This document shows positions 40,646 to 52,069 of a stretch of 64,000 nucleotides of DNA, piece after piece. The notes under the pieces were generated by a model, which had not been told where the DNA came from, made no database searches, and saw only the letters and a list, made by a program, of their open reading frames with translations. How positions within the stretch are numbered: the first letter of the stretch is position 1; each line of letters opens with the position of its first letter. The stretch comes from Escherichia coli (lineage in GTDB: Bacteria > Pseudomonadota > Gammaproteobacteria > Enterobacterales > Enterobacteriaceae): the NCBI RefSeq assembly GCF_003790525.1, contig NZ_CP033635.1, one strand, 5' to 3'. The position numbers were made by a program, and so were the translations under genes.

Positions 40646-41899
40646 ATGTCAGGATCCAACACTGCAATCAGCCGTCGTCGTTTACTGCAAGGCGCGGGTG
40701 CCATGTGGCTATTGAGCGTAAGTCAGGTCAGCCTGGCTGCGGTCAGCCAGGTCGTGGCGGTGCGCGTCTGGCCTGCGTCCAGCTACACCCGCGTGACGGT
40801 AGAATCTAATCGTCAGCTGAAATATAAGCAGTTCGCGTTGAGTAATCCTGAACGCGTGGTGGTGGATATCGAAGATGTAAACCTGAACTCGGTGCTCAAG
40901 GGGATGGCTGCGCAAATCCGCGCTGACGACCCGTTCATCAAGTCGGCGCGCGTCGGGCAATTTGACCCGCAAACCGTACGTATGGTTTTTGAATTAAAGC
41001 AAAACGTAAAACCGCAGCTGTTTGCCCTTGCGCCGGTCGCCGGGTTTAAAGAGCGTCTGGTGATGGATCTCTATCCTGCCAATGCACAGGATATGCAGGA
41101 CCCGCTGCTGGCGCTGCTGGAGGATTACAACAAAGGCGACCTCGAAAAGCAGGTGCCGCCAGCACAAAGTGGTCCACAACCGGGTAAAGCTGGGCGGGAT
41201 CGTCCGATTGTCATTATGCTTGACCCTGGTCACGGTGGCGAAGACTCCGGTGCGGTGGGGAAATACAAAACACGCGAAAAAGACGTAGTATTGCAAATAG
41301 CTCGCCGTCTGCGCTCTCTGATCGAGAAAGAGGGCAATATGAAGGTGTACATGACGCGCAATGAAGACATCTTCATTCCGTTGCAAGTGCGCGTAGCAAA
41401 AGCCCAGAAACAGCGTGCTGACTTGTTTGTCTCTATCCATGCCGACGCCTTTACCAGTCGCCAGCCGAGCGGTTCCTCGGTGTTTGCGCTCTCAACCAAA
41501 GGCGCAACCAGTACTGCGGCAAAATATCTGGCACAAACCCAGAACGCCTCGGACTTGATTGGTGGCGTAAGCAAAAGCGGTGACCGCTATGTCGACCACA
41601 CTATGTTCGATATGGTGCAGTCGCTGACCATTGCTGACAGCCTGAAGTTTGGTAAAGCGGTGCTGAATAAGCTCGGTAAAATCAACAAGCTGCATAAAAA
41701 TCAAGTTGAACAGGCCGGGTTTGCCGTACTAAAGGCACCAGATATTCCCTCCATTCTGGTCGAAACGGCGTTTATCAGTAACGTTGAGGAAGAGCGTAAA
41801 CTGAAAACGGCGACTTTCCAGCAGGAAGTTGCGGAGTCTATTCTTGCGGGAATTAAAGCGTATTTTGCCGATGGGGCGACGCTGGCGAGAAGGGGATAA
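40646..41899 (+). CDS. amiC: N-acetylmuramoyl-L-alanine amidase AmiC (Tat-exported)
   Basis: Internal ATG at 40646 gives [23 protein letters not shown] (twin-arginine signal); amidase_3 C-terminal domain. Confidence 0.9.
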
Positions 41900-42070
41900 T
41901 GTTTTTATTTATTCAATGAATTTATATTTCGTTGAATAGATAACATTTACCTGAATATTAGACGCTGGTTTTGTGACTGATGTCGGATATTTGAATGTCG
42001 GCTTGAAAAATAAGCCGACCATCTCTTTAATTAAGCACAATTCCGTGTAATGTATACGCATTAGTTAATC

Positions 42071-42145
42071 ATCTTGTAACTGTTAAATCAGGCAAGGCAA
42101 TGTTTGAAGTAATCATTACTTCTGACGTGCCTTGCCTTTTTTTTT
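42071..42145 (+). promoter_or_regulatory. RAT-like element overlapping an intrinsic terminator in the leader of the islet antiterminator gene
   Basis: CTTGTAACTGTTAAATCAGGCAAGGC resembles BglG/SacY-type RAT sequences (TTGTTACTG...CAGGCAAAACC); it overlaps the 5' arm of an extended hairpin (GGCAAGGCA 42091-42099 / TGCCTTGCC 42128-42136, with inner GAAGTAAT/ATTACTTC pairing) followed by nine Ts; GGAG lies about 8 bp before the ATG at 42157. Confidence 0.55.
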
Positions 42146-42156
42146 GGAGCCATGAA

Positions 42157-42981
42157 ATGATCATCGAAAAAGTCATGAACAATAATTGTGTACAGGCATC
42201 GATGAATGGACAGGAGGTTATCATTTCTGGGCCTGGCGTCGGTTACAACAAAAAATATGGAATGTCGGTCCCTGAGCATCCGGCTAACCGGATTTTTTAT
42301 GTCAGAAATGAACAAAAAAATAAACTCTACAAATTGATTGAACATGTGGATATTGAGTATGTTTTTGTTGCCGAAAAAATAGTGCAATATGCGGAGAACA
42401 ATCTCGAAAAAAATCTCAATCCATCGCTACTATTGATTCTTGCTGATCACATTTCGAATGCAATATCCCGAGTCGCTTCAGGCATACAAATTAATAATGT
42501 TTTCCTTGATGAAATCAAAGCGTTGTACAAAGCAGAGTATGCGATAAGTCGCGATGCATTAACTATCATTAATGAGCAATTCAGCGTTCAACTTCCTGAT
42601 GATGAGATTGGTTTTATAGCATTGCATATTTTAAATAATTATGAAAATTCAGTTGATTATGAATCAGTACGGATTATTGAGTTGTCGCAAATAATCACGG
42701 GGCTTATTGAAGTTGTTTATAACAGAAAGGTGGACAGAAGTTCATTTAATTATTCCAGGTTCATGATACACCTTAAATATTTTTCAAGTCGCGTATTATG
42801 TAATGAAAAGATAAAACAAAAAGATATTGGTGACATCTATGAGCAGTTTCTTGAGAAAGACATCCTGTTACAGCGCGCAATTCATGAAATTGAACGGTAT
42901 CTGTATGCCACTTTTAAATATGAATTAATTTTAGAAGAAAAACTATATCTCTCAATTCGTACCAAAGTATTAATGGACTAA
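42157..42981 (+). CDS. BglG/LicT-family PRD-containing transcription antiterminator
   Basis: ORF track 42100..42981; start taken at the ATG at 42157; N-terminal CAT-like region (IEKVMNNNCVQASMNGQEVIISGPGVGY) and PRD regions with conserved His contexts (LPDDEIGFIALHIL, RFMIHLKYFSSRV) resembling BglG (LPKDEVGFIAMHL, RLVTHLKFLSWRI). Confidence 0.8.
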   Translation: MIIEKVMNNNCVQASMNGQEVIISGPGVGYNKKYGMSVPEHPANRIFYVRNEQKNKLYKLIEHVDIEYVFVAEKIVQYAENNLEKNLNPSLLLILADHISNAISRVASGIQINNVFLDEIKALYKAEYAISRDALTIINEQFSVQLPDDEIGFIALHILNNYENSVDYESVRIIELSQIITGLIEVVYNRKVDRSSFNYSRFMIHLKYFSSRVLCNEKIKQKDIGDIYEQFLEKDILLQRAIHEIERYLYATFKYELILEEKLYLSIRTKVLMD

Positions 42982-43012
42982 TTATATATAACATTTATAT
43001 GAGATAACCCAC

Positions 43013-44593
43013 ATGAAACAAAAGAAAGCCTGGAGTTTTTTTCAGAGCCTGGGAAAGGCATTCATGTATCCCATTGCTCTGCTAAGTGTATGTGGCATGA
43101 TGCTAGGGCTGGGAAGTGGTTTAGCCAGTGATGATATGGCAAAGTTAATTCCATTTCTGGCTATTCCAATAATTAAAACCATACTTGATTTCATTGTTAG
43201 TCTTGGTTTGTTTGCCTTTGTTAATTTACCTGTATTGTTTGCGATAGCGATTCCCTTAGGATTATTAAAAGATAAAGAGGATAAAGCCTATGGTGCTTTT
43301 TCTGGCTTAATTGGTTTTATGGCGATGCATCTGGGAACGAACTTTTATCTTAAACAGCACGACTTATTGGTCGCTGCTGACCAAATGTCGACACATGGGC
43401 AAACCATCATTCTGGGGATCCAGTCCTACAATACCAGCGTGTTAGGGGGAATTGTTGCTGGGTTATTAGTCGCCAGCATGTATAAAAAGATCGTTAATTT
43501 ACGCATTCCTGAATCATTAGGTTTTTATAGCGGCCCACGTCTGGTGCCTATCATTACACTGATTGTGATGAGTGGATTTGGTCTGATCATCCCTTTTATC
43601 TGGCCGCCGTTTTTCAATCTTTTCATGCTCATTGGCCACTGGATTTCAACTTCCGGTCCTGTTGGCTATTTTTTCTATGCAGTCGCCGAACGCGTGACGA
43701 TACCTTTTGGTTTAAATCACCTGGTGACGTCAGTTTTCCGCTTTACCCCCATCGGCGGATCGGCAGTGATCGGCGGCGAAGAGTATTATGGCACCCTGAA
43801 CATGTTTATGGCGTACGTCAAAGAGAATGCGGTCATTCCGCTGGATTTGGCGGGGAAAATGGAACAGGGCAAACTGATGATTCAGTATGGTCTGGCTGGT
43901 GCCGCGCTGGCGATGTATCGCACTGCTCATGCTCAAAACAGAAAAGCTATCAAAGCATTGCTTATTTCCGGGGTGCTTACAGTCATTATTGGCGGCGTCA
44001 GCGAACCGATTGAGTTTCTGTTCTTATTTGTCAGTCCACTGCTGTTTGTCTTCCATGCATTTATGAATGGATTCGCCAACATGGTCTTGCCATATATGGG
44101 CGTGAAGATGGGATTTACTGGCGATCTGATTCAATTTATTAGCTTTGGCGTATTGCGTGGCACAAGAACAGGTTGGCCAATAGCGGTGTGTGTCGAAGTG
44201 GCCTATTTCTTTATTTATTACTTTGTGTTCCGTTGGACTATTCTCAAATTTAACCTGATGACGGTAGGCCGTGAAGAGTCCAGTCCTGTCACGCTGAACG
44301 CTCATGAGGATACGGCTATAGCGGATATCCCAACTCCTGATAAATCAGAGCTGCAAGCGGCGGAGCAGATGGTTAAGGCACTTGGTGGTAAAGAGAATAT
44401 TAAGTCACTGGATAATTGCGTAACTCGTTTACGTTTAACAATCGCAGATATGGGATTGCTTGACGAGGCTGCAATAAAAAGAGCCGGCGGAATTGCGGTT
44501 GTTAAACTTGATCAAAATACCCTACAAGTCATTATCGGTACTAAAGTCATCGCCTTGCGTCGGGATATGGATAACTACATGGGGATATGCTGA
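43013..44593 (+). CDS. PTS glucose-family EIICB component, MalX-like
   Basis: 526-aa polytopic ORF with C-terminal EIIB motif NCVTRLR; collinear similarity to K-12 MalX (SYDLGKAFMYPIALLS vs FQQLGKTFMLPVALLS; EPIEFLFLFVSP vs EPLEFLFLFVAP). Confidence 0.85.
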   Translation: MKQKKAWSFFQSLGKAFMYPIALLSVCGMMLGLGSGLASDDMAKLIPFLAIPIIKTILDFIVSLGLFAFVNLPVLFAIAIPLGLLKDKEDKAYGAFSGLIGFMAMHLGTNFYLKQHDLLVAADQMSTHGQTIILGIQSYNTSVLGGIVAGLLVASMYKKIVNLRIPESLGFYSGPRLVPIITLIVMSGFGLIIPFIWPPFFNLFMLIGHWISTSGPVGYFFYAVAERVTIPFGLNHLVTSVFRFTPIGGSAVIGGEEYYGTLNMFMAYVKENAVIPLDLAGKMEQGKLMIQYGLAGAALAMYRTAHAQNRKAIKALLISGVLTVIIGGVSEPIEFLFLFVSPLLFVFHAFMNGFANMVLPYMGVKMGFTGDLIQFISFGVLRGTRTGWPIAVCVEVAYFFIYYFVFRWTILKFNLMTVGREESSPVTLNAHEDTAIADIPTPDKSELQAAEQMVKALGGKENIKSLDNCVTRLRLTIADMGLLDEAAIKRAGGIAVVKLDQNTLQVIIGTKVIALRRDMDNYMGIC

Positions 44594-45768
44594 TGGATGT
44601 TTTTAATACTCCTATTTCCCGCAAAGGAACATATTGTACCCAATGGGACTTTTGCGAGGACAGATTTGGTGTAAAAGATGTATTACCATTCTCTATTTCA
44701 GATATGGATCTTCCGATACCAGACGCTATCACCAGAGCATTAAAAAAACGTCTGGAACACCCGATTTTAGGGTACAGCCGTTGGCAGCATGATGACTATC
44801 TGAATGCGATAGTCAATTGGTATCATCAACAATATAAAACTGAAATCAAACCAGAATGGATCACCTATAGCCCAAGCGTGATGTACTCCATTGCTAAAGC
44901 AATAGAGTTATTGACATCGCATGGTGATAATATTCTCGTTTTTACACCTGTCTATAATGCATTTTTTGATATAATTAAACATAGCGAGAGAAATATTCTG
45001 ACAGCCTCTTTGATTATAAAAAATGAGGGGGGCTACGCTATCAATTGGCAAGATTTTGATCTTAAGATTCAAAGCGCAAAGATGGTGTTATTATGTAATC
45101 CTCATAACCCGACAGGAACAGTCTGGTCGGAAGAAGAACTGCATAAAATCGCTGCAAGCTGTACAAGGCATAATGTCTGGTTATGTTCAGATGAAATCCA
45201 TAGTGATTTTGTTTTTAATCGTAGCTTTACATCCGCGCTTAAAATAAAAAAAGAAAAAGTAGTAGTATTTAACTCGATATCGAAAACATTTAATGTTCCT
45301 GCACTAACAGGATCGTATATGATTTCAACTGACGATAATTTTAATCATAAGTTCAGAACGATATCGAGGTATCGCGATTTTGTAAACTCCCCATCAGTAC
45401 TGAATATAATTGCAACTATTATTGCCTATAACGAATGTGAGGGATGGTTAAAGTCATTAAAGGCACATATTGCCTCTAACATTCAATTCACCCAGCAGTA
45501 TCTGAACGAAAACACTCCAGAATTGATCGTAAGGCCAGCTGATGGTTGCTATTTTTCGTGGATAGATTGCTCTGCTATTGGTTATCCCTTTGATGAATTC
45601 TACAGTCGATTAATTCATGAAGGCAAAGTGGGCATTATGGCGGGGAATGTCTATGGAACGGAGGGGGAGGGCTACCTTCGTCTGAACCTGGCCTGCGGTC
45701 GAGAAAAATTATATATGGGGCTTACGCGTCTTGCGAGTGTAATTAAAAATATTAATCAAGGAAAATAA
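44587..45768 (+). CDS. PLP-dependent C-S lyase / aminotransferase class I-II, MalY-like
   Basis: 393-aa ORF overlapping the PTS stop; GTYCTQWDF vs MalY GTWCTQWDY; PLP-lysine context SISKTFNVPALTG vs MalY SGSKSFNIPALTG. Confidence 0.85.
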   Translation: MLMDVFNTPISRKGTYCTQWDFCEDRFGVKDVLPFSISDMDLPIPDAITRALKKRLEHPILGYSRWQHDDYLNAIVNWYHQQYKTEIKPEWITYSPSVMYSIAKAIELLTSHGDNILVFTPVYNAFFDIIKHSERNILTASLIIKNEGGYAINWQDFDLKIQSAKMVLLCNPHNPTGTVWSEEELHKIAASCTRHNVWLCSDEIHSDFVFNRSFTSALKIKKEKVVVFNSISKTFNVPALTGSYMISTDDNFNHKFRTISRYRDFVNSPSVLNIIATIIAYNECEGWLKSLKAHIASNIQFTQQYLNENTPELIVRPADGCYFSWIDCSAIGYPFDEFYSRLIHEGKVGIMAGNVYGTEGEGYLRLNLACGREKLYMGLTRLASVIKNINQGK

Positions 45769-45770
45769 AA

Positions 45771-46367
45771 ATGAACAGCACGGATCTTATCCATCTCATT
45801 AAACATTTTATGCGTAACGAACATAAAGCAGTTGAAGAAGTTATTGATTCCCCCCTTTCGGAGGTCGCAAATTTAATTAAAGTATTACAGTCTTGTCAGG
45901 GGAAAGTTGTTTTTATTGGTGTCGGTAAGTCCGGTATTATTGCCCGAAAACTCGCCGCAACATTTGCCAGCACTGGAACTCCCTCGTTTTTTGTTCACGG
46001 TACGGAAGCGGTACACGGCGACCTTGGAATGGTGGCGAAAGACGATGTTGTTATTCTTATTTCAAACAGTGGTGAGACGGCGGAAATCCTGGCGACACTG
46101 CCTAGTCTGAAAAAAATGGGTAATTATTTGATCTCTTTTACACGCAGTCATCACTCATCGCTTGCGATAAGTTGTGATTTATCCGTTGAAATTCCCGTAA
46201 AAAGTGAGGCGGATAATTTAGGTTTAGCGCCGTCATGCTCATCAACAGTCGTTCTGGTTGTTGGTGATGCGGTGGCGCTTGCGCTCTCCGAATTGAAAAA
46301 GTTTACTCGTGCTGATTTCGGCTTATATCATCCAGGAGGTGCGCTCGGTATTAAAGCAAACTCATAA
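45771..46367 (+). CDS. SIS-domain sugar-phosphate isomerase (KdsD/GutQ-like, no CBS domains)
   Basis: 198-aa ORF; GVGKSGIIARKLAATFASTGTPSFFVH and LISNSGETAEIL closely resemble the SIS core of arabinose-5-phosphate isomerases. Confidence 0.75.
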   Translation: MNSTDLIHLIKHFMRNEHKAVEEVIDSPLSEVANLIKVLQSCQGKVVFIGVGKSGIIARKLAATFASTGTPSFFVHGTEAVHGDLGMVAKDDVVILISNSGETAEILATLPSLKKMGNYLISFTRSHHSSLAISCDLSVEIPVKSEADNLGLAPSCSSTVVLVVGDAVALALSELKKFTRADFGLYHPGGALGIKANS

Positions 46368-46429
46368 TTTCAAAATATAAATACAGTAACCGGTCACGCC
46401 ATCTTTTGGGGTGGCGTTCTTTGAAGTGA

Positions 46430-47386
46430 GTGTCAGCTATGAAAAATGTTCTGGTCACCGTCCCCAGCTTTTCAGCACGCTGTGTTTCCGCCAGCAAGTT
46501 GCTAAGAGAGAATAATTTTAATCTTATTATTAAGAATAATGTGGAGCATCTGCTTAAATCAGAATCCACTGCATTACGAGAATCTATTTGCGCGGTCATC
46601 GCCGGAAAAGATTGTTATCAGGCGGACACGCTATCATTGCTGTCTGGTGTGAAAATAATATCGAGATTCGGGACGGGGATAGACAATATTGATCTTCGTG
46701 CGGCACAGCAATCCGGTATTGTTGTCAATAATGCGGTTGGGATTAATTCAAATGCGGTTGCGGAATTTATCATTGGACTTATCTTCGCGAGCATGAGAAA
46801 TATCCCCGGTAGCTATCATGCGATGCAAAATGGTTATTGGGGCGAGTCGCATGGCTGCGAGTTACAAGGTAAACGTATTGGCCTGCTTGGCTACGGCAAT
46901 ATTGGCAAAACACTGGCGAAAAGGTTATCTGGTTTTGATGTTGAGCTTTTAGCTTTTGACAAACAACCCGATTTCCAGGCCGCAGGCAAAGATGGAGTTC
47001 AGTTCGTATCAATTGAAGATATCTTTATGCAGTCTCATGTCATCATCGTTCTTTTGCCATTTTCTCCGGAGCTGGAGAACTTCATTAGTCATAAATATTT
47101 GTCGATGATGCGCAATGGTGCTCTGATCATCAACGCCGCAAGGGGAAAGTTGCTGGATGAGGGTGCTTTACTTCAGGTAATTGAAGAACGAAATGTTTTT
47201 GCAGCACTGGATGTGTTTAGCTCTGAACCGCTAGCGCAATTTAGCCCATTGCTACATGCCAAGAATATCATTACAACGCCGCATATTGCGGCCGCCACCG
47301 TTGAGTCATACCAGCAAACCGGGATATACGTTGCCCAGTCGATAATTGATTACTTCGCAGGAAGGGAGATAAAAAACGTGCTGTGA
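46430..47386 (+). CDS. D-isomer-specific 2-hydroxyacid dehydrogenase family protein (NAD-binding)
   Basis: 318-aa ORF with dinucleotide-binding motif GLLGYGNIGKTLAKRL and family-typical C-terminal TPHIAAAT. Confidence 0.75.
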   Translation: MSAMKNVLVTVPSFSARCVSASKLLRENNFNLIIKNNVEHLLKSESTALRESICAVIAGKDCYQADTLSLLSGVKIISRFGTGIDNIDLRAAQQSGIVVNNAVGINSNAVAEFIIGLIFASMRNIPGSYHAMQNGYWGESHGCELQGKRIGLLGYGNIGKTLAKRLSGFDVELLAFDKQPDFQAAGKDGVQFVSIEDIFMQSHVIIVLLPFSPELENFISHKYLSMMRNGALIINAARGKLLDEGALLQVIEERNVFAALDVFSSEPLAQFSPLLHAKNIITTPHIAAATVESYQQTGIYVAQSIIDYFAGREIKNVL

Positions 47387-47411
47387 GTTCAGCTAAGGAA
47401 TATTTCAGGTA

Positions 47412-47445
47412 CAAAAAAACCGCAATTTGTGAAACACATTGCGGT
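47412..47445 (-). terminator. Intrinsic terminator of the metZWV tRNA operon
   Basis: On the minus strand, hairpin ACCGCAAT/ATTGCGGT followed by a U-run, immediately 3' of the last tRNA copy. Confidence 0.5.
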
Positions 47446-47464
47446 TTATCAGCATCATAAGTGT

Positions 47465-47541
<77 letters not shown>

Positions 47542-47575
47542 TCACCGTACTGCTTTTACTTCATCAAATTTTGAT

Positions 47576-47652
<77 letters not shown>

Positions 47653-47685
47653 TCACCGTACTGCTTTACTTCATCAAATTTTAAT

Positions 47686-47762
<77 letters not shown>

Positions 47763-47970
47763 TCCGTGGATGCGCACTATACTCTGCTCGCGTTTTCATG
47801 CAACCTTTTTTTTACCCCGATCACGGATTTGGCATGATTTTGAACAAAAACAAATCACTAAAGCCTATTTTTTGTGCAAAATTTGCGTCGGGGAGAGGCT
47901 GCTCATTTCATTAAACGCGGCGGTTTGTTATCTTCGTTGCGCCTTATTTTTTAACCTGAAGAAGAGAACA

Positions 47971-49068
47971 ATGAAAGGACGTTGGGTAAAGTACCTTCTT
48001 ATGGGCACGGTTGTGGCAATGCTTGCCGCCTGCTCTTCCAAACCAACCGATCGCGGACAGCAATATAAAGACGGGAAATTTACCCAGCCTTTCTCTCTGG
48101 TGAACCAGCCAGATGCCGTTGGCGCGCCGATTAACGCCGGTGATTTTGCCGAGCAAATTAACCATATCCGTAATTCGTCACCGCGTCTGTATGGCAACCA
48201 GAGTAATGTTTATAACGCGGTGCAAGAGTGGCTGCGCGCAGGCGGTGATACCCGCAATATGCGCCAGTTCGGCATTGATGCCTGGCAGATGGAAGGTGCC
48301 GACAACTATGGTAACGTGCAGTTTACCGGTTATTACACGCCAGTAATTCAGGCGCGCCATACCCGCCAGGGCGAGTTTCAGTATCCGATTTACCGTATGC
48401 CGCCAAAACGTGGTCGTCTGCCGTCTCGTGCGGAGATCTACGCGGGGGCATTGAGCGATAAATACATCCTCGCTTACAGCAACTCTCTGATGGATAACTT
48501 CATTATGGATGTGCAGGGTAGTGGGTATATCGACTTTGGTGATGGCAGTCCGCTTAACTTTTTCAGCTATGCAGGGAAAAACGGTCATGCCTATCGCAGC
48601 ATTGGTAAGGTGCTGATCGACCGTGGCGAAGTGAAAAAAGAAGATATGTCGATGCAGGCGATTCGTCACTGGGGTGAAACACACAGTGAAGCCGAGGTTC
48701 GCGAGCTGCTGGAACAGAACCCGTCTTTCGTCTTCTTTAAACCGCAATCTTTTGCTCCGGTGAAAGGGGCAAGTGCGGTGCCGCTGGTTGGTCGCGCTTC
48801 AGTTGCGTCCGATCGTTCCATTATCCCGCCTGGTACAACCTTACTGGCAGAAGTGCCGCTGCTGGATAATAACGGCAAATTTAACGGTCAGTACGAACTA
48901 CGGCTGATGGTGGCGTTGGATGTCGGTGGTGCAATCAAAGGCCAACACTTCGATATTTATCAAGGTATCGGGCCGGAAGCCGGACACCGCGCAGGTTGGT
49001 ACAACCACTATGGACGTGTTTGGGTGCTGAAAACCGCCCCGGGCGCAGGTAACGTCTTTAGCGGCTGA
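47971..49068 (+). CDS. mltA: Membrane-bound lytic murein transglycosylase A (lipoprotein)
   Basis: Internal ATG at 47971 of ORF 47689..49068 gives MKGRWVKYLLMGTVVAMLAACSS (lipobox); the upstream in-frame extension runs through the tRNA genes and is not coding. Confidence 0.9.
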   Translation: MKGRWVKYLLMGTVVAMLAACSSKPTDRGQQYKDGKFTQPFSLVNQPDAVGAPINAGDFAEQINHIRNSSPRLYGNQSNVYNAVQEWLRAGGDTRNMRQFGIDAWQMEGADNYGNVQFTGYYTPVIQARHTRQGEFQYPIYRMPPKRGRLPSRAEIYAGALSDKYILAYSNSLMDNFIMDVQGSGYIDFGDGSPLNFFSYAGKNGHAYRSIGKVLIDRGEVKKEDMSMQAIRHWGETHSEAEVRELLEQNPSFVFFKPQSFAPVKGASAVPLVGRASVASDRSIIPPGTTLLAEVPLLDNNGKFNGQYELRLMVALDVGGAIKGQHFDIYQGIGPEAGHRAGWYNHYGRVWVLKTAPGAGNVFSG

Positions 49069-49144
49069 TGTGTTATTCTGTATACCGTTTTGACGGATAC
49101 GACAGGGTGAGGGATAACCTCGCCCTTTTTAATTCTGAGGTGCT

Positions 49145-49951
49145 ATGTCTGTGGTAATTAGTGATGCATGGCGTCAGCGTTTTGGTGGCACAGCGCGTCT
49201 GTATGGTGAAAAAGCATTGCAACTGTTTGCTGACGCGCATATTTGTGTGGTTGGTATCGGTGGTGTCGGTTCCTGGGCGGCGGAAGCGCTGGCGCGCACG
49301 GGGATTGGCTCAATCACGCTTATCGATATGGATGATGTGTGCGTCACCAATACCAATCGGCAAATTCATGCCCTGCGCGATAACGTTGGGCTGGCAAAAG
49401 CGGAAGTTATGGCGGAGCGTATTCGCCAGATTAACCCGGAGTGCCGTGTAACGGTGGTGGATGATTTCGTGACGCCGGATAACGTAGCGCAGTATATGAG
49501 CGTGGGTTATTCGTACGTGATTGATGCCATTGATAGTGTACGGCCCAAAGCGGCGCTGATTGCTTATTGTCGGCGCAATAAAATCCCACTGGTCACAACC
49601 GGTGGCGCGGGTGGGCAGATTGACCCGACGCAGATTCAGGTTACCGATCTGGCGAAAACGATTCAGGACCCGCTGGCGGCGAAGTTGCGTGAGCGCCTGA
49701 AAAGCGATTTTGGCATAGTGAAAAACAGTAAAGGTAAGCTCGGCGTGGATTGCGTGTTCTCTACCGAAGCGCTGGTGTACCCGCAGTCAGATGGCACGGT
49801 CTGTGCAATGAAAGCTACGGCGGAAGGGCCAAAGCGGATGGATTGTGCATCTGGATTTGGTGCCGCGACGATGGTGACCGCCACCTTTGGTTTTGTTGCG
49901 GTTTCTCATGCGCTGAAGAAGATGATGGCGAAAGCGGCGCGTCAGGGGTAA
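49145..49951 (+). CDS. tcdA: tRNA threonylcarbamoyladenosine dehydratase (E1-like)
   Basis: 268-aa ORF with ThiF/MoeB-type nucleotide-binding motif VVGIGGVGSWAAEALAR. Confidence 0.9.
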   Translation: MSVVISDAWRQRFGGTARLYGEKALQLFADAHICVVGIGGVGSWAAEALARTGIGSITLIDMDDVCVTNTNRQIHALRDNVGLAKAEVMAERIRQINPECRVTVVDDFVTPDNVAQYMSVGYSYVIDAIDSVRPKAALIAYCRRNKIPLVTTGGAGGQIDPTQIQVTDLAKTIQDPLAAKLRERLKSDFGIVKNSKGKLGVDCVFSTEALVYPQSDGTVCAMKATAEGPKRMDCASGFGAATMVTATFGFVAVSHALKKMMAKAARQG

Positions 49952-49957
49952 ACAATC

Positions 49958-49990
49958 AGGTCGGATGCGACGCAAACGTCCTTTCCGACC
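49958..49990. repeat. REP-like palindrome between tcdA and csdE
   Basis: GGTCGGATGCGACGC...CCTTTCCGACC inverted repeat. Confidence 0.4.
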
Positions 49991-50001
49991 CGGTTCTGTG
50001 C

Positions 50002-50445
50002 TTAAACCTGCTTCGCCGCAGCGATAATCGCCTCGCTTAACGCATTCAACCCCTGGCTGCGTGAGGCGCTAAGTTGCGCACGCAATCCCAGCTCATCAAA
50101 CAATGCCAGCGGCGACTGTGCCTGCAATTCGGCGGCGGTTTTGCCCTCAACGGCAGTCAACAACACCGCAAGCAGGCCGCGCACAATGCGTCCTTCGCTG
50201 TCGCCAAAGAAATGCATCTTGCCGTTTTCAGCCATGGTATATCCCAGCCAGACGCGGTTTTCGCATCCGGCAATCTCTTTAGCCTGCGCTTTTAACTCGT
50301 CTGGCAAAGCCGGCAGCTGTTTCCCCAGCATGATCAACTGGCGATATTTATCTTCCCATTGCGACAACGGTGCGAAGGTATTGCGTAACGTTTCTGCGGT
50401 TACGGTTGTGCCGAACGGATGTCCGGCGAATTGCGGGTTCGTCAT
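50002..50445 (-). CDS. csdE: Sulfur acceptor protein CsdE (SufE-like)
   Basis: 147-aa ORF; start overlaps the csdA stop (TAATG on the coding strand). Confidence 0.85.
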
Positions 50446-51650
50446 TAATCCACCAATAATTCCAGCGCGCGGTCAACGGCATTCACCAGCGCATCCACAT
50501 CACTCTTTGTATTATATGGCGCAAAAGAGGCGCGCAGTGTGCCGGTTACGCCTAATTCTGCCAGTAGCGGCTGAGCGCAATGCTGCCCGGCCCGCAGGGC
50601 AATACCGTACTCCGCCAGCAGTGTCACCATATCGCTGTGATGAACTCCAGCAAAATCAAAGGCCAGCAGGCTGGAATCCTGGCAGCGGAATGAACGAAAG
50701 CCTGGACGTTTCGCCAGCGCTTCTTCTGCAAGCGTTGCTAAGCTACGGCTCCAGCTTTCGGCCTGGTTGATATCGTAATCTGTCAGCCATTCCAGCGCCG
50801 CGCTTAATCCTATGACGCCAGCGACATTTGGCGTTCCTGCTTCCAGTTTCCACGGCGCAGATTGAGTCGTGAAGCCGTCAAAACTCACTTCGTGAACCAT
50901 TTTGCCGCCGCCCAGCCAGGGCGACATCGCTTCCAGCAGTTCTGGTTTGCCATACAGCACGCCGATGCCTGTCGGGCCATACAGTTTGTGACCTGAAAAA
51001 GCATAGAAATCAATATCCAGTTGCTGAACATCCGCGGGGAAATGCACCGCCCCCTGAGCACCATCAACCATCACCACCATCCCGGCTGAATGAGCAAAAG
51101 TAATCGCTCTCGCCAGATCCGGGCAACCGCCAGTGACGTTCGACATCTGGCCCAACGCCAGAATCCGACTACGGGGAGTAATCAGTTCTGGCAACAAATC
51201 GACATCCGGCAGTCGCTGCGCATTAAGCGGCAATTTCACCACTTTGGCCCCCGTTTGTTGGGCGACCATCAGCCAGGGGACGAGGTTGGCGTGGTGTTCT
51301 GCCACACTGACAATAATTTCATCGCCCGGTTGCAGACGCGGACGCGCATAGCATTGTGCCACCATGTTGATGGATTCAGTGGTGCCGCGCGTCCAGACGA
51401 TAGTTTTATCATCCGGTGCATTCAGTAATTGTGCCACTTTTTCCCGCGCAGCTTCGTAACGCGCGGTCAGGCGTTGGGCTTCGGCAAACTGGCTGCGATG
51501 GACGTTTCCGGCGCTCAGGCTATAAAACTGTCGGGTGGCTTCAACCACGGCTTCAGGTTTAAGCGCGGTCGCGGCGCTGTCGAGATAGACGCCCGCATCC
51601 TGTAGCGCGGGAAACTGGGCGCGAAACTGCGCGGGATTAAAAACGTTCAT
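50445..51650 (-). CDS. csdA: Cysteine desulfurase CsdA (PLP-dependent)
   Basis: Start taken at the ATG at 51648-51650 giving [16 protein letters not shown]...; the ORF track extends 12 codons further. Confidence 0.9.
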
Positions 51651-51841
51651 GGTACTCCTCGGCTTGATGCACCGATCGTGACGCAAAATTCACTTTGATA
51701 CAAGGAGAGTGCTAACCATCAGAATTATCTGGATATCCTGGCGAAGCCGCGTCAGTAACATATGCTGAATAGTGTTAGGCGTTAATTTTAGCCTGTTAAT
51801 CAATACTATTAAGATTTATTAATCGCTTTAAGGAGAAGATG

Positions 51842-52069
51842 ATGAAAAAGACTGCCGCAATTATTTCTGCCTGTATGCTGACTTTTGCCCTGAGCGCCTG
51901 TTCCGGTTCGAACTATGTGATGCACACCAATGACGGACGTACCATCGTCTCTGACGGCAAACCACAGACTGATAACGATACCGGTATGATTTCGTATAAA
52001 GACGCTAATGGCAACAAACAGCAGATCAACCGTACTGACGTGAAAGAGATGGTCGAACTGGATCAGTAA
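51842..52069 (+). CDS. ygdI: Small lipoprotein (DUF903 family)
   Basis: 75-aa [36 protein letters not shown]...; clear paralog of ygdR. Confidence 0.85.

Follow-up and report, generated by a model that had tools for sequence, protein, structure and literature searches.

Certain Escherichia coli strains carry, between amiC and the metV tRNA gene, a five-gene islet whose first gene encodes an antiterminator and is preceded by a RAT-like sequence that runs into a terminator. The question raised by this arrangement is whether the leader is a switch operated by the adjacent antiterminator, as proposed in a preliminary description of this DNA, or an element of some other kind. The evidence presented below makes it probable that this element serves as the attenuator in the paf operon leader, acting by classical antitermination through PafR that is controlled by substrate and autoregulated. 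The RAT-terminator element itself is real, conserved and unannotated in RefSeq; it is of a well-known kind, with a lower stem that is modestly unusual.

Genomic setting of the islet

The window analyzed, a 64-kb stretch of the E. coli chromosome, was 100% identical to strain SMS-3-5 and contained in order recD, argA (minus strand), amiC, the five-gene islet, the three tRNA-fMet genes metV, metW and metZ (minus strand), mltA and tcdA. In K-12, 73 bp separate amiC from the metV gene that comes next, and the homology between K-12 and the window ended exactly at the amiC stop codon. The G+C content of the islet was 32-47% versus 51-54% for the flanks. The islet corresponds to a known locus of the UPEC metV island, paf or c3405-c3410 (pafR-pafP and following genes), and the paf locus is typical of extraintestinal pathogenic lineages, urinary-tract pathogens included. 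Genes c3405-c3410 of PAI-CFT073-metV, which correspond to this islet, are retained in UPEC strains, E2348/69 and SMS-3-5 (PMC2831201). Of 5426 complete E. coli genomes, 1687-1690 (∼31%) carried the islet, and the paf operon was intact in ∼1,690. Among the ∼1,690 matches of the leader in E. coli, one came from a record labelled as a plasmid.

The islet began directly after the amiC stop codon, where it replaced the K-12 amiC terminator GGCGCTGAATGGCGCTTTTTT (window positions 41900-41996 compared with K-12). Transcripts of amiC probably continue into the paf leader in strains that carry the islet. A hairpin located upstream in the leader, GTCGGCTTGAAAAATAAGCCGAC at 41997-42019 (plus strand), was detected by terminator scan with 9 pairs and a weak T-rich tail, and a hairpin with an AAAAnA loop recurred at this position in most orthologous islets; it is possibly a weak terminator or an insulator ahead of the paf promoter. 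Since the islet removed the terminator belonging to amiC, and the T tail of the 41997-42019 hairpin is poor, the paf terminator described below probably stops amiC transcripts as well.

The RAT hairpin

A 29-nt hairpin, AUCUUGUAACUGUUAAAUCAGGCAAGGCA, occupied positions 42071-42099 of the plus strand and was identified by fold, sequence pattern, covariance model and conservation; the RefSeq annotation shows no feature at the site. A resemblance to the RAT targets of the BglG/SacY family had been noted beforehand and was borne out by the searches. The core of the hairpin, UUGUAACUG-N6-CAGGCAA, matches RAT sites of this family, with CTTGTAACTGTTAAATCAGGCAAGGC located at 42073-42098 and an exact match to the conserved UUGU-N-ACUG...CAGGCAA core at 42074-42096. 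The pattern TTGTWACTG-N6-CAGGCAWR had a single match with 0 mismatches in the 64 kb, with 0.01 matches expected at ≤1 mismatch. A covariance model was built from seven RATs of other systems only, comprising the two of K-12 bgl and five from licT loci of Clostridium tertium and Thermoanaerobacterium that were reached via PafR homologues. With this model, positions 42074-42095 ranked first in the window with 16.3 bits (rough E ∼0.016), the next match scoring 11.0 bits. The likeness to other RATs held for positions 4-26, the only ones that the model aligned, but did not extend to the lower third of the hairpin, which is noncanonical. The upper two thirds are canonical, with 15 of the 16 core positions equal to those of bgl t1.

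The 29-mer folded alone at -6.3 kcal/mol with a topology like that of bgl t1 and t2, the E. coli bgl t1 RAT folding at -6.4 kcal/mol. The helix comprised the pairs U2-G27, C3-G26, U4-A25, U5-A24, G6-C23 and U7-G22 followed by C10-G21, U11-A20 and G12-C19; A8 and A9 bulge out opposite G22 to make the upper loop, and UUAAAU forms the apical one. The base of the hairpin reads AUC...GGCA, with C at position 3 and G at position 26. In the fold of the 29-mer C3-G26 and U2-G/A27 pair and positions 1/29 and 2/28 cannot, and the covariance-model alignment revealed neither the canonical G1G2/C28C29 basal stem nor the A-rich lower loop in the paf RAT. The lower loop of LicT targets is needed for high-affinity RAT binding, and canonical RATs are 29-33 nt long and share 6-10 nt with the terminator (PMC5393181). 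Judged by its sequence, the paf site is a genuine member of the RAT lineage with a remodelled lower part. An extension of the base by two more pairs beneath a 2x2 loop (C0 A1 / C28 A29) is possible; these were paired in 6/8 and 8/8 sequences, but the helix was not significant, its score being reached by 64 of 500 shuffles, and it was rejected as a basal stem.

The 34-nt RAT segment was present once per genome in 1688 of the 5426 complete E. coli genomes, 1677 copies being at least 99% identical, and no second close copy was found in any of the 5426 genomes searched. Searches by pattern (≤3 mismatches), regular expression and covariance model detected no second RAT, either in the window as a whole or in the gap from pafR to pafP. 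A scan of 41000-52000 against Rfam (E ≤ 10) returned the three tRNA-fMet genes and noise with no match in the leader, a result that says little about RAT membership.

The terminator and the alternative folds

The minimum free energy structure of the leader was an intrinsic terminator hairpin at 42090-42137 (plus strand) with ∼-28 kcal/mol when folded alone. Its basal helix pairs 42090-42099 (AGGCAAGGCA) with 42128-42137 and comprises 10 bp of which 6 are G-C, and the inner helices are formed by 42101-42104 with 42124-42127 and 42106-42112 with 42116-42122. A U9 tract at 42137-42145 (plus strand), exactly nine T in the sequence and invariant in 8 of 9 alignment columns, begins at the last pair of the basal helix, an anatomy that qualifies the structure as an intrinsic terminator. 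The nine Ts end 12 bp before the antiterminator start annotated at 42157, as had been described. The hairpin was missed by a simple terminator scan because the stem is long and interrupted rather than a simple stem with a loop of 3-8 nt. The 91-nt leader folded at -29.6 kcal/mol compared to -15.2±2.9 kcal/mol for shuffled sequences (z = -4.87), and none of 200 shuffles was as good.

The 5′ arm of the terminator (42090-42099) is identical with RAT positions 20-29, an overlap of 10 nt that constitutes the 3′ third of the RAT. The pairing of this segment with 42128-42137 confirms the earlier statement that the 3′ part of the RAT forms the 5′ arm of a long hairpin, and folding revealed that the RAT and terminator conformers are each stable, share the 10 nt and are mutually exclusive. 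When the RAT was forced to form, only the apical part of the terminator remained as an 8-bp helix located 14 nt from the U tract, with no stem adjoining the tract. The forced-RAT fold was 13.2 kcal/mol above the terminated minimum; the same calculation gave 9.1 kcal/mol for bgl t1 and 7.4 kcal/mol for t2. In these models the paf switch is plausible and leans to termination more than that of bgl.

A hairpin of this stability adjoining nine Ts could instead be a plain constitutive terminator that ends amiC transcripts and insulates the islet, with the RAT-like sequence a decayed relic and the operon driven otherwise. The position of the islet directly after the amiC stop codon, where it displaces the K-12 amiC terminator, agrees with such a role, as do the weak T tail of the first hairpin after amiC and, for the relic, the absence of a canonical lower loop and basal stem. 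However, a constitutive terminator placed 12 nt before the first gene would silence an operon that is nonetheless intact in ∼1,690 complete genomes. The conservation and the chromosomal location of the leader in other genera also bear on this explanation and are described below.

PafR and the genes of the operon

The first gene of the islet (42157-42981, plus strand) encodes a BglG/SacY-family antiterminator of 274 aa, the homologue of CFT073 c3405, assigned by NCBIfam, Pfam and PDB matches. We take this antiterminator to be PafR and the PTS gene to be pafP, the names reportedly used by Baum et al. in 2014. The Shine-Dalgarno sequence of pafR, an invariant GGAG at 42146-42149 (plus strand), precedes the ATG at 42157 by 7 nt. 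The list of open reading frames called the gene at 42100-42981, adding 19 codons from inside the hairpin; the ATG at 42100 is not conserved and this start was rejected as an artefact. The same ATG raises an explanation in which termination is set by translation of a leader peptide from within the hairpin rather than by an RNA-binding protein. The ATG is in frame with pafR and the open reading frame extends to it, but Atlantibacter, Citrobacter MGH106 and two metagenome copies have ACG or AGG in its place, a usable Shine-Dalgarno sequence is missing, and RefSeq places the start at 42157. Control by a leader peptide is therefore extremely improbable.

The domains CAT_RBD (PF03123) and PRD (PF00874), the latter as PRD1 and PRD2, were identified in the representative of the 93%-identical cluster and in orthologues of PafR. 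Full-length alignments to structures in the PDB were obtained with LicT CAT-PRD1 (6TWR), the LicT PRDs (1TLV and 1H99), GlcT (3RIO) and the LicT CAT domain (1L1C). NCBIfam scores were 225.7 bits for LicT (cutoff 300), 178 for GlcT and 104 for BglG. Judged by the score below the cutoff and by the 35-36% identity of the nearest relatives outside the enterobacteria, PafR is a separate subfamily and not an orthologue of LicT (NF046042). With reference to the LicT histidines His100, His159, His207 and His269, PafR keeps His98 and His157 of PRD1 and His205, the first of PRD2, and has Arg268 at the position of LicT His269. The position of the fourth PRD histidine is Asn in BglG, and three of four in PafR is compatible with the family.

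The second gene, pafP (43013-44593, plus strand), begins 32 nt after pafR and encodes a PTS EIICB that belongs to the glucose/maltose family and lacks an EIIA domain (TIGR02004 MalX, 538.8 bits, below cutoff); the product is 42% identical to MalX of K-12. Since PafP has no EIIA domain of its own it presumably depends on EIIA-Glc. PafP is presumed to be the sensor that phosphorylates PafR. It is followed by a PLP-dependent C-S lyase of the MalY/PatB family (44593-45768, plus strand) that is 36% identical to K-12 MalY and scored 368.8 bits with TIGR04350, above the cutoff of 340. The segment 43013-45768 is thus a paralogous copy of the K-12 malX-malY pair, with an antiterminator in the place of the MalI repressor. 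The fourth gene (45771-46367, plus strand) encodes, by profile matches, a KpsF/GutQ-like sugar-phosphate isomerase of 198 aa with a SIS domain only; enzymes of ∼320-330 aa are its full-size counterparts, and its matches to the KdsD and GutQ profiles are confined to their first ∼200 positions. The gene that ends the islet (46439-47386, plus strand) encodes a D-2-hydroxyacid or phosphoglycerate-dehydrogenase-like protein according to profile matches and RefSeq. The sequence of a gene with CAT and PRD domains followed by a gene for a PTS EIICB, together with the exclusive folds, the conserved core and the compensatory changes in the terminator, upholds the antitermination reading of the preliminary description, in which binding of PafR to the RAT is a prediction.

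Conservation and horizontal movement of the leader

Outside E. coli, close orthologues of PafR (77-80% identity) were confined to Atlantibacter hermannii, two species of Citrobacter and a small number of metagenome contigs; PafR of E. whittamii is 93% identical. The next relatives were LicT proteins of Firmicutes with ∼35% identity. In five lineages (Escherichia, Citrobacter and Atlantibacter among them) the RAT core from C3 to G26 was invariant at 23 of 24 positions with a mean pairwise identity of 98%, and was the most conserved non-coding block of the leader. The other parts of the leader were less alike, with 47% identity in the region of the upstream hairpin, 71-73% in the promoter-like segments, 78% in the inner terminator and 60% in the terminator 3′ arm. 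Every orthologue folded, with -6.3 to -7.2 kcal/mol for the RAT and -26 to -29 kcal/mol for the terminator. Compensatory changes from G-C to A-U were observed in the terminator at columns 32/65 (three sequences), 41/57 and 36/62, and the terminator of Atlantibacter is a perfect 21-bp stem of different composition. In the RAT consensus fold of 8 orthologues, 96.6% of cells were paired and 9 of 11 pairs were invariant. The RAT helix gave no covariation signal because it never varies, and the support for this helix is its conservation. Among the sampled E. coli lineages, the RAT and both arms of the terminator were invariant, the differences being located in the apical part of the terminator and upstream.

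The five-gene operon was syntenic in most copies. In Atlantibacter it is located between amiC and mltA; in Citrobacter it is located elsewhere, near dnaQ-rnhA (L005, L009, L010), and the leader accompanies the operon. In one metagenome contig (L007:6500-8450) the operon adjoins IS1 and a fragment of a P4-type integrase. The location at dnaQ-rnhA and that beside IS1 and an integrase indicate that the unit moved horizontally. The dehydrogenase gene of Atlantibacter hermannii is split into pieces of 132 and 119 aa (L003:11225-13002) and was not called in L004:7237-8184; the gene is apparently decaying in this species.

A decayed relic would not have held 23 of 24 core positions, apical loop included, across genera amid a diverging leader, and insulation from amiC does not account for a RAT-terminator pair that accompanies the operon in Citrobacter, where the neighbour is not amiC. 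We consider it unlikely that the leader is a constitutive terminator with a decayed RAT, and control by antitermination is the reading pursued below.

Specificity of the RAT and comparison with known systems

The CAT residues that determine specificity in B. subtilis are Arg27/Gln32 in LicT, Pro26/Gln31 in SacT and Ala26/Asn31 in SacY (PMC3105407). Recognition of the LicT type needs a purine at RAT position 3 and A26, SacY prefers U3, and the sac RATs have G26 (PMC1635312). PafR has Pro26/Asn31, different from the Arg/Gln of both LicT and BglG (‘MGRGIGFQKR’), and combines the specificity residue Pro26 of SacT with Asn31 of SacY. The paf RAT has C3 and G26, with G at position 27 in Escherichia and A in Citrobacter and Atlantibacter. 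PafR and its RAT thus depart jointly from BglG and bgl in a sac-like direction, which suggests a private specificity insulated from BglG.

The bglGFB operon of E. coli has the same order of promoter, RAT, overlapping terminator, antiterminator gene and PTS permease gene as paf. It differs by a second RAT and terminator, t2, between bglG and bglF, a position where paf has 32 nt and neither element. The bgl RATs have a GG/CC base and a lower loop of A3/A26/A27, whereas the paf RAT has C3/G26/G27 without that base. PafR and BglG are 30% identical, with the fourth PRD histidine missing in both, and the permease is a Glc/Mal-family EIICB in paf but a beta-glucoside EIIBCA in bgl. It is conceivable that the RAT is read by another antiterminator instead of or besides PafR, for example by BglG once bgl is activated, which would couple the islet to beta-glucoside sensing. 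The identity of 15 of 16 core positions in the upper two thirds with bgl t1 favors such reading, and cross-talk within the family is documented in B. subtilis (PMC1635312, PMC3105407). However, the A3/A26/A27 signature and GG/CC base of both bgl RATs are not found in paf, proteins with the LicT-type residues Arg27/Gln32 need a purine at position 3 and A26, and the Pro26/Asn31 of PafR suggest a matched private pair. Moreover, the RAT and pafR have stayed together in Citrobacter and Atlantibacter. Recognition by BglG or a similar protein is consequently judged very unlikely, leaving PafR as the predicted partner.

The sacB/SacY and sacPA/SacT systems of B. subtilis resemble paf in having RATs with a pyrimidine at position 3 and G26, and the A27 of the Citrobacter and Atlantibacter paf copies is that of the sacB RAT. 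The paf RAT differs in lacking a G-C basal stem under the lower loop, and the sugar class and gene content differ. Position 8 is A in paf (C in Atlantibacter) versus U or G in sac. In glcT-ptsG of B. subtilis an antiterminator is paired with a glucose-family PTS permease as in paf, and GlcT was the second-best NCBIfam and PDB match of PafR. The ptsG RAT's lower loop, like that of paf, departs from the bgl/sac type, a departure that gives complete insulation in B. subtilis. The symmetrical ‘triple base pairing’ of the ptsG RAT is not obviously formed by the lower region of the paf RAT. The B. subtilis RAT and terminator are located between glcT and ptsG, and glcT is not autoregulated by them, whereas the paf RAT precedes pafR.

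A scan of metagenomes with the 22-nt core and loop returned the enterobacterial leaders and about a dozen contigs of low G+C content. In the latter the identical 22 nt, UUGUAACUGUUAAAUCAGGCAA, are located inside a canonical GGR...AACC base, and each RAT overlaps a terminator and precedes an antiterminator gene. The antiterminator of contig L026 is a bona fide LicT (389.6 bits versus the cutoff of 300) with 36% identity to PafR, and its licT is followed by genes for a beta-glucoside EIIBCA and a GH1 phospho-beta-glucosidase. The LicT-bglP-GH1 operons (L020-L038) thus share with paf the 22-nt core and loop, the overlapping terminator and the antiterminator gene, and differ by the GGR...AACC base and by targets that are a beta-glucoside EIIBCA and a phospho-beta-glucosidase. 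The segment UUGU(A/C)ACUGUUAAAUCAGGCAA, apical loop included, was identical in unrelated low-G+C licT leaders (L020-L027, L029, L032, L035, L036 and L038), which is surprising for a loop described as variable. The Firmicute relatives of PafR were rejected as the source of the islet, their loci being ordinary licT-bglP-GH1 operons that are not malX-like.

Gordon et al. are said to have searched K-12 and UPEC genomes for RATs in 2015. A 2025 review credits this work with the finding that overlap with a terminator is absent from most putative RATs, and it makes no mention of paf. We tentatively propose, with considerable doubt, that the paf RAT constitutes a distinct subclass having the canonical upper loop and apical hairpin, a paired C3-G26 and neither the canonical lower loop nor the basal G-C stem, matched to a Pro26/Asn31 CAT domain; that it is the primary and unreported target of PafR; and that the tight terminator explains the absence of expression in vitro.

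Promoter region

A putative -10 sequence, TAATGT at 42048-42053 (plus strand), was assigned with low confidence from a TAnnGT present in all orthologues. Invariant columns of alignment A2 were G56 T57 G58 T59 A60, G63 T64 and C70 A71 T72. The conserved CAT at 42059-42061, located 7 nt downstream of the -10 sequence, is likely to be the transcription start, an assignment made from the sequence and with low confidence. A scan for a consensus sigma-70 promoter upstream of the RAT found none, from which the -35 sequence of paf is taken to be weak. Further upstream, a TGTGA-N6-TCGGA motif at 41972-41987 (plus strand) is possibly a CRP-like half-site, an assignment drawn from conservation. The right half of the motif is poorly conserved and the left half alone is kept, with TTTGTGA present in E. 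coli, A. hermannii and contig L007 and degenerate (TGTGG, TGAGG) in two Citrobacter copies that sit in different chromosomal contexts. The TGTGA motif and the hairpin with the AAAAnA loop (window positions 41972-42019) persist even where the islet occupies another chromosomal site.

Proposed mechanism

A weak promoter near 42060 would start transcription, to which read-through from amiC possibly adds in E. coli, and the RAT hairpin would emerge first. Without the PTS substrate, phosphorylated PafP would keep PafR phosphorylated on PRD1 (His98/His157) and inactive. The downstream arm would then capture the 3′ third of the RAT, the -28 kcal/mol hairpin with U9 would form, and RNA polymerase would release a leader of ∼85 nt just before the ribosome-binding site of pafR. 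With substrate present, we infer that PafR is dephosphorylated and dimerizes and that its CAT domain clamps the RAT, withholding 42090-42099 from the terminator. Only the 8-bp apical helix would remain, 14 nt from the U tract, and polymerase would continue into pafR, pafP and the genes encoding the MalY-like lyase, the SIS isomerase and the dehydrogenase. The single RAT precedes pafR itself, which implies a positive autoregulatory loop that would depend on basal read-through. The description of the islet as probably autoregulated follows from the position of the window's sole RAT, which precedes the antiterminator gene. Counted against antitermination by PafR are the missing canonical lower loop, the invariant RAT helix, a terminator stronger than those of bgl and the lack of a consensus promoter.

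The first two paf genes are reportedly necessary for full virulence in mouse urinary-tract infection. Baum et al., in 2014, are said to have reported that PafR can antiterminate, its targets being called unknown, and that no expression from the promoter before the paf genes could be detected in vitro. If the reporter fusions used in that work included 42090-42145 they would have read ‘off’ regardless of the promoter. Going by this report, the paf site was either unrecognized in the prior work on PafR or tried without success. The regulator encoded by pafR on the metV island is required in mouse urinary-tract infection (PMC8882828), and the report that expression of pafR seemed limited to in vivo conditions (PMC4468546) fits a strong terminator under control of an inducer.

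The leader supplies a concrete candidate target of PafR for testing. Fusions of promoter and reporter that span 42090-42145 are expected to read ‘off’ whatever the promoter does, and the attenuator offers a handle for finding the inducing sugar, either by a leader-reporter fusion or by a deletion of the terminator that unlocks the operon. The ‘Bgl-like sensory system’ logic of paf was already anticipated in the literature and would not surprise a specialist; for the study of RATs, the leader adds a natural enterobacterial example in which a divergent lower loop accompanies a matching change in two CAT specificity residues.

At the other end of the islet, the segment 47400-47450 between the last gene and metV contains a hairpin, ACCGCAAT...ATTGCGGT, bordered by A7 at one end and by TTTAT at the other; this has the look of a bidirectional terminator that serves the tRNA operon strongly and the islet less so.
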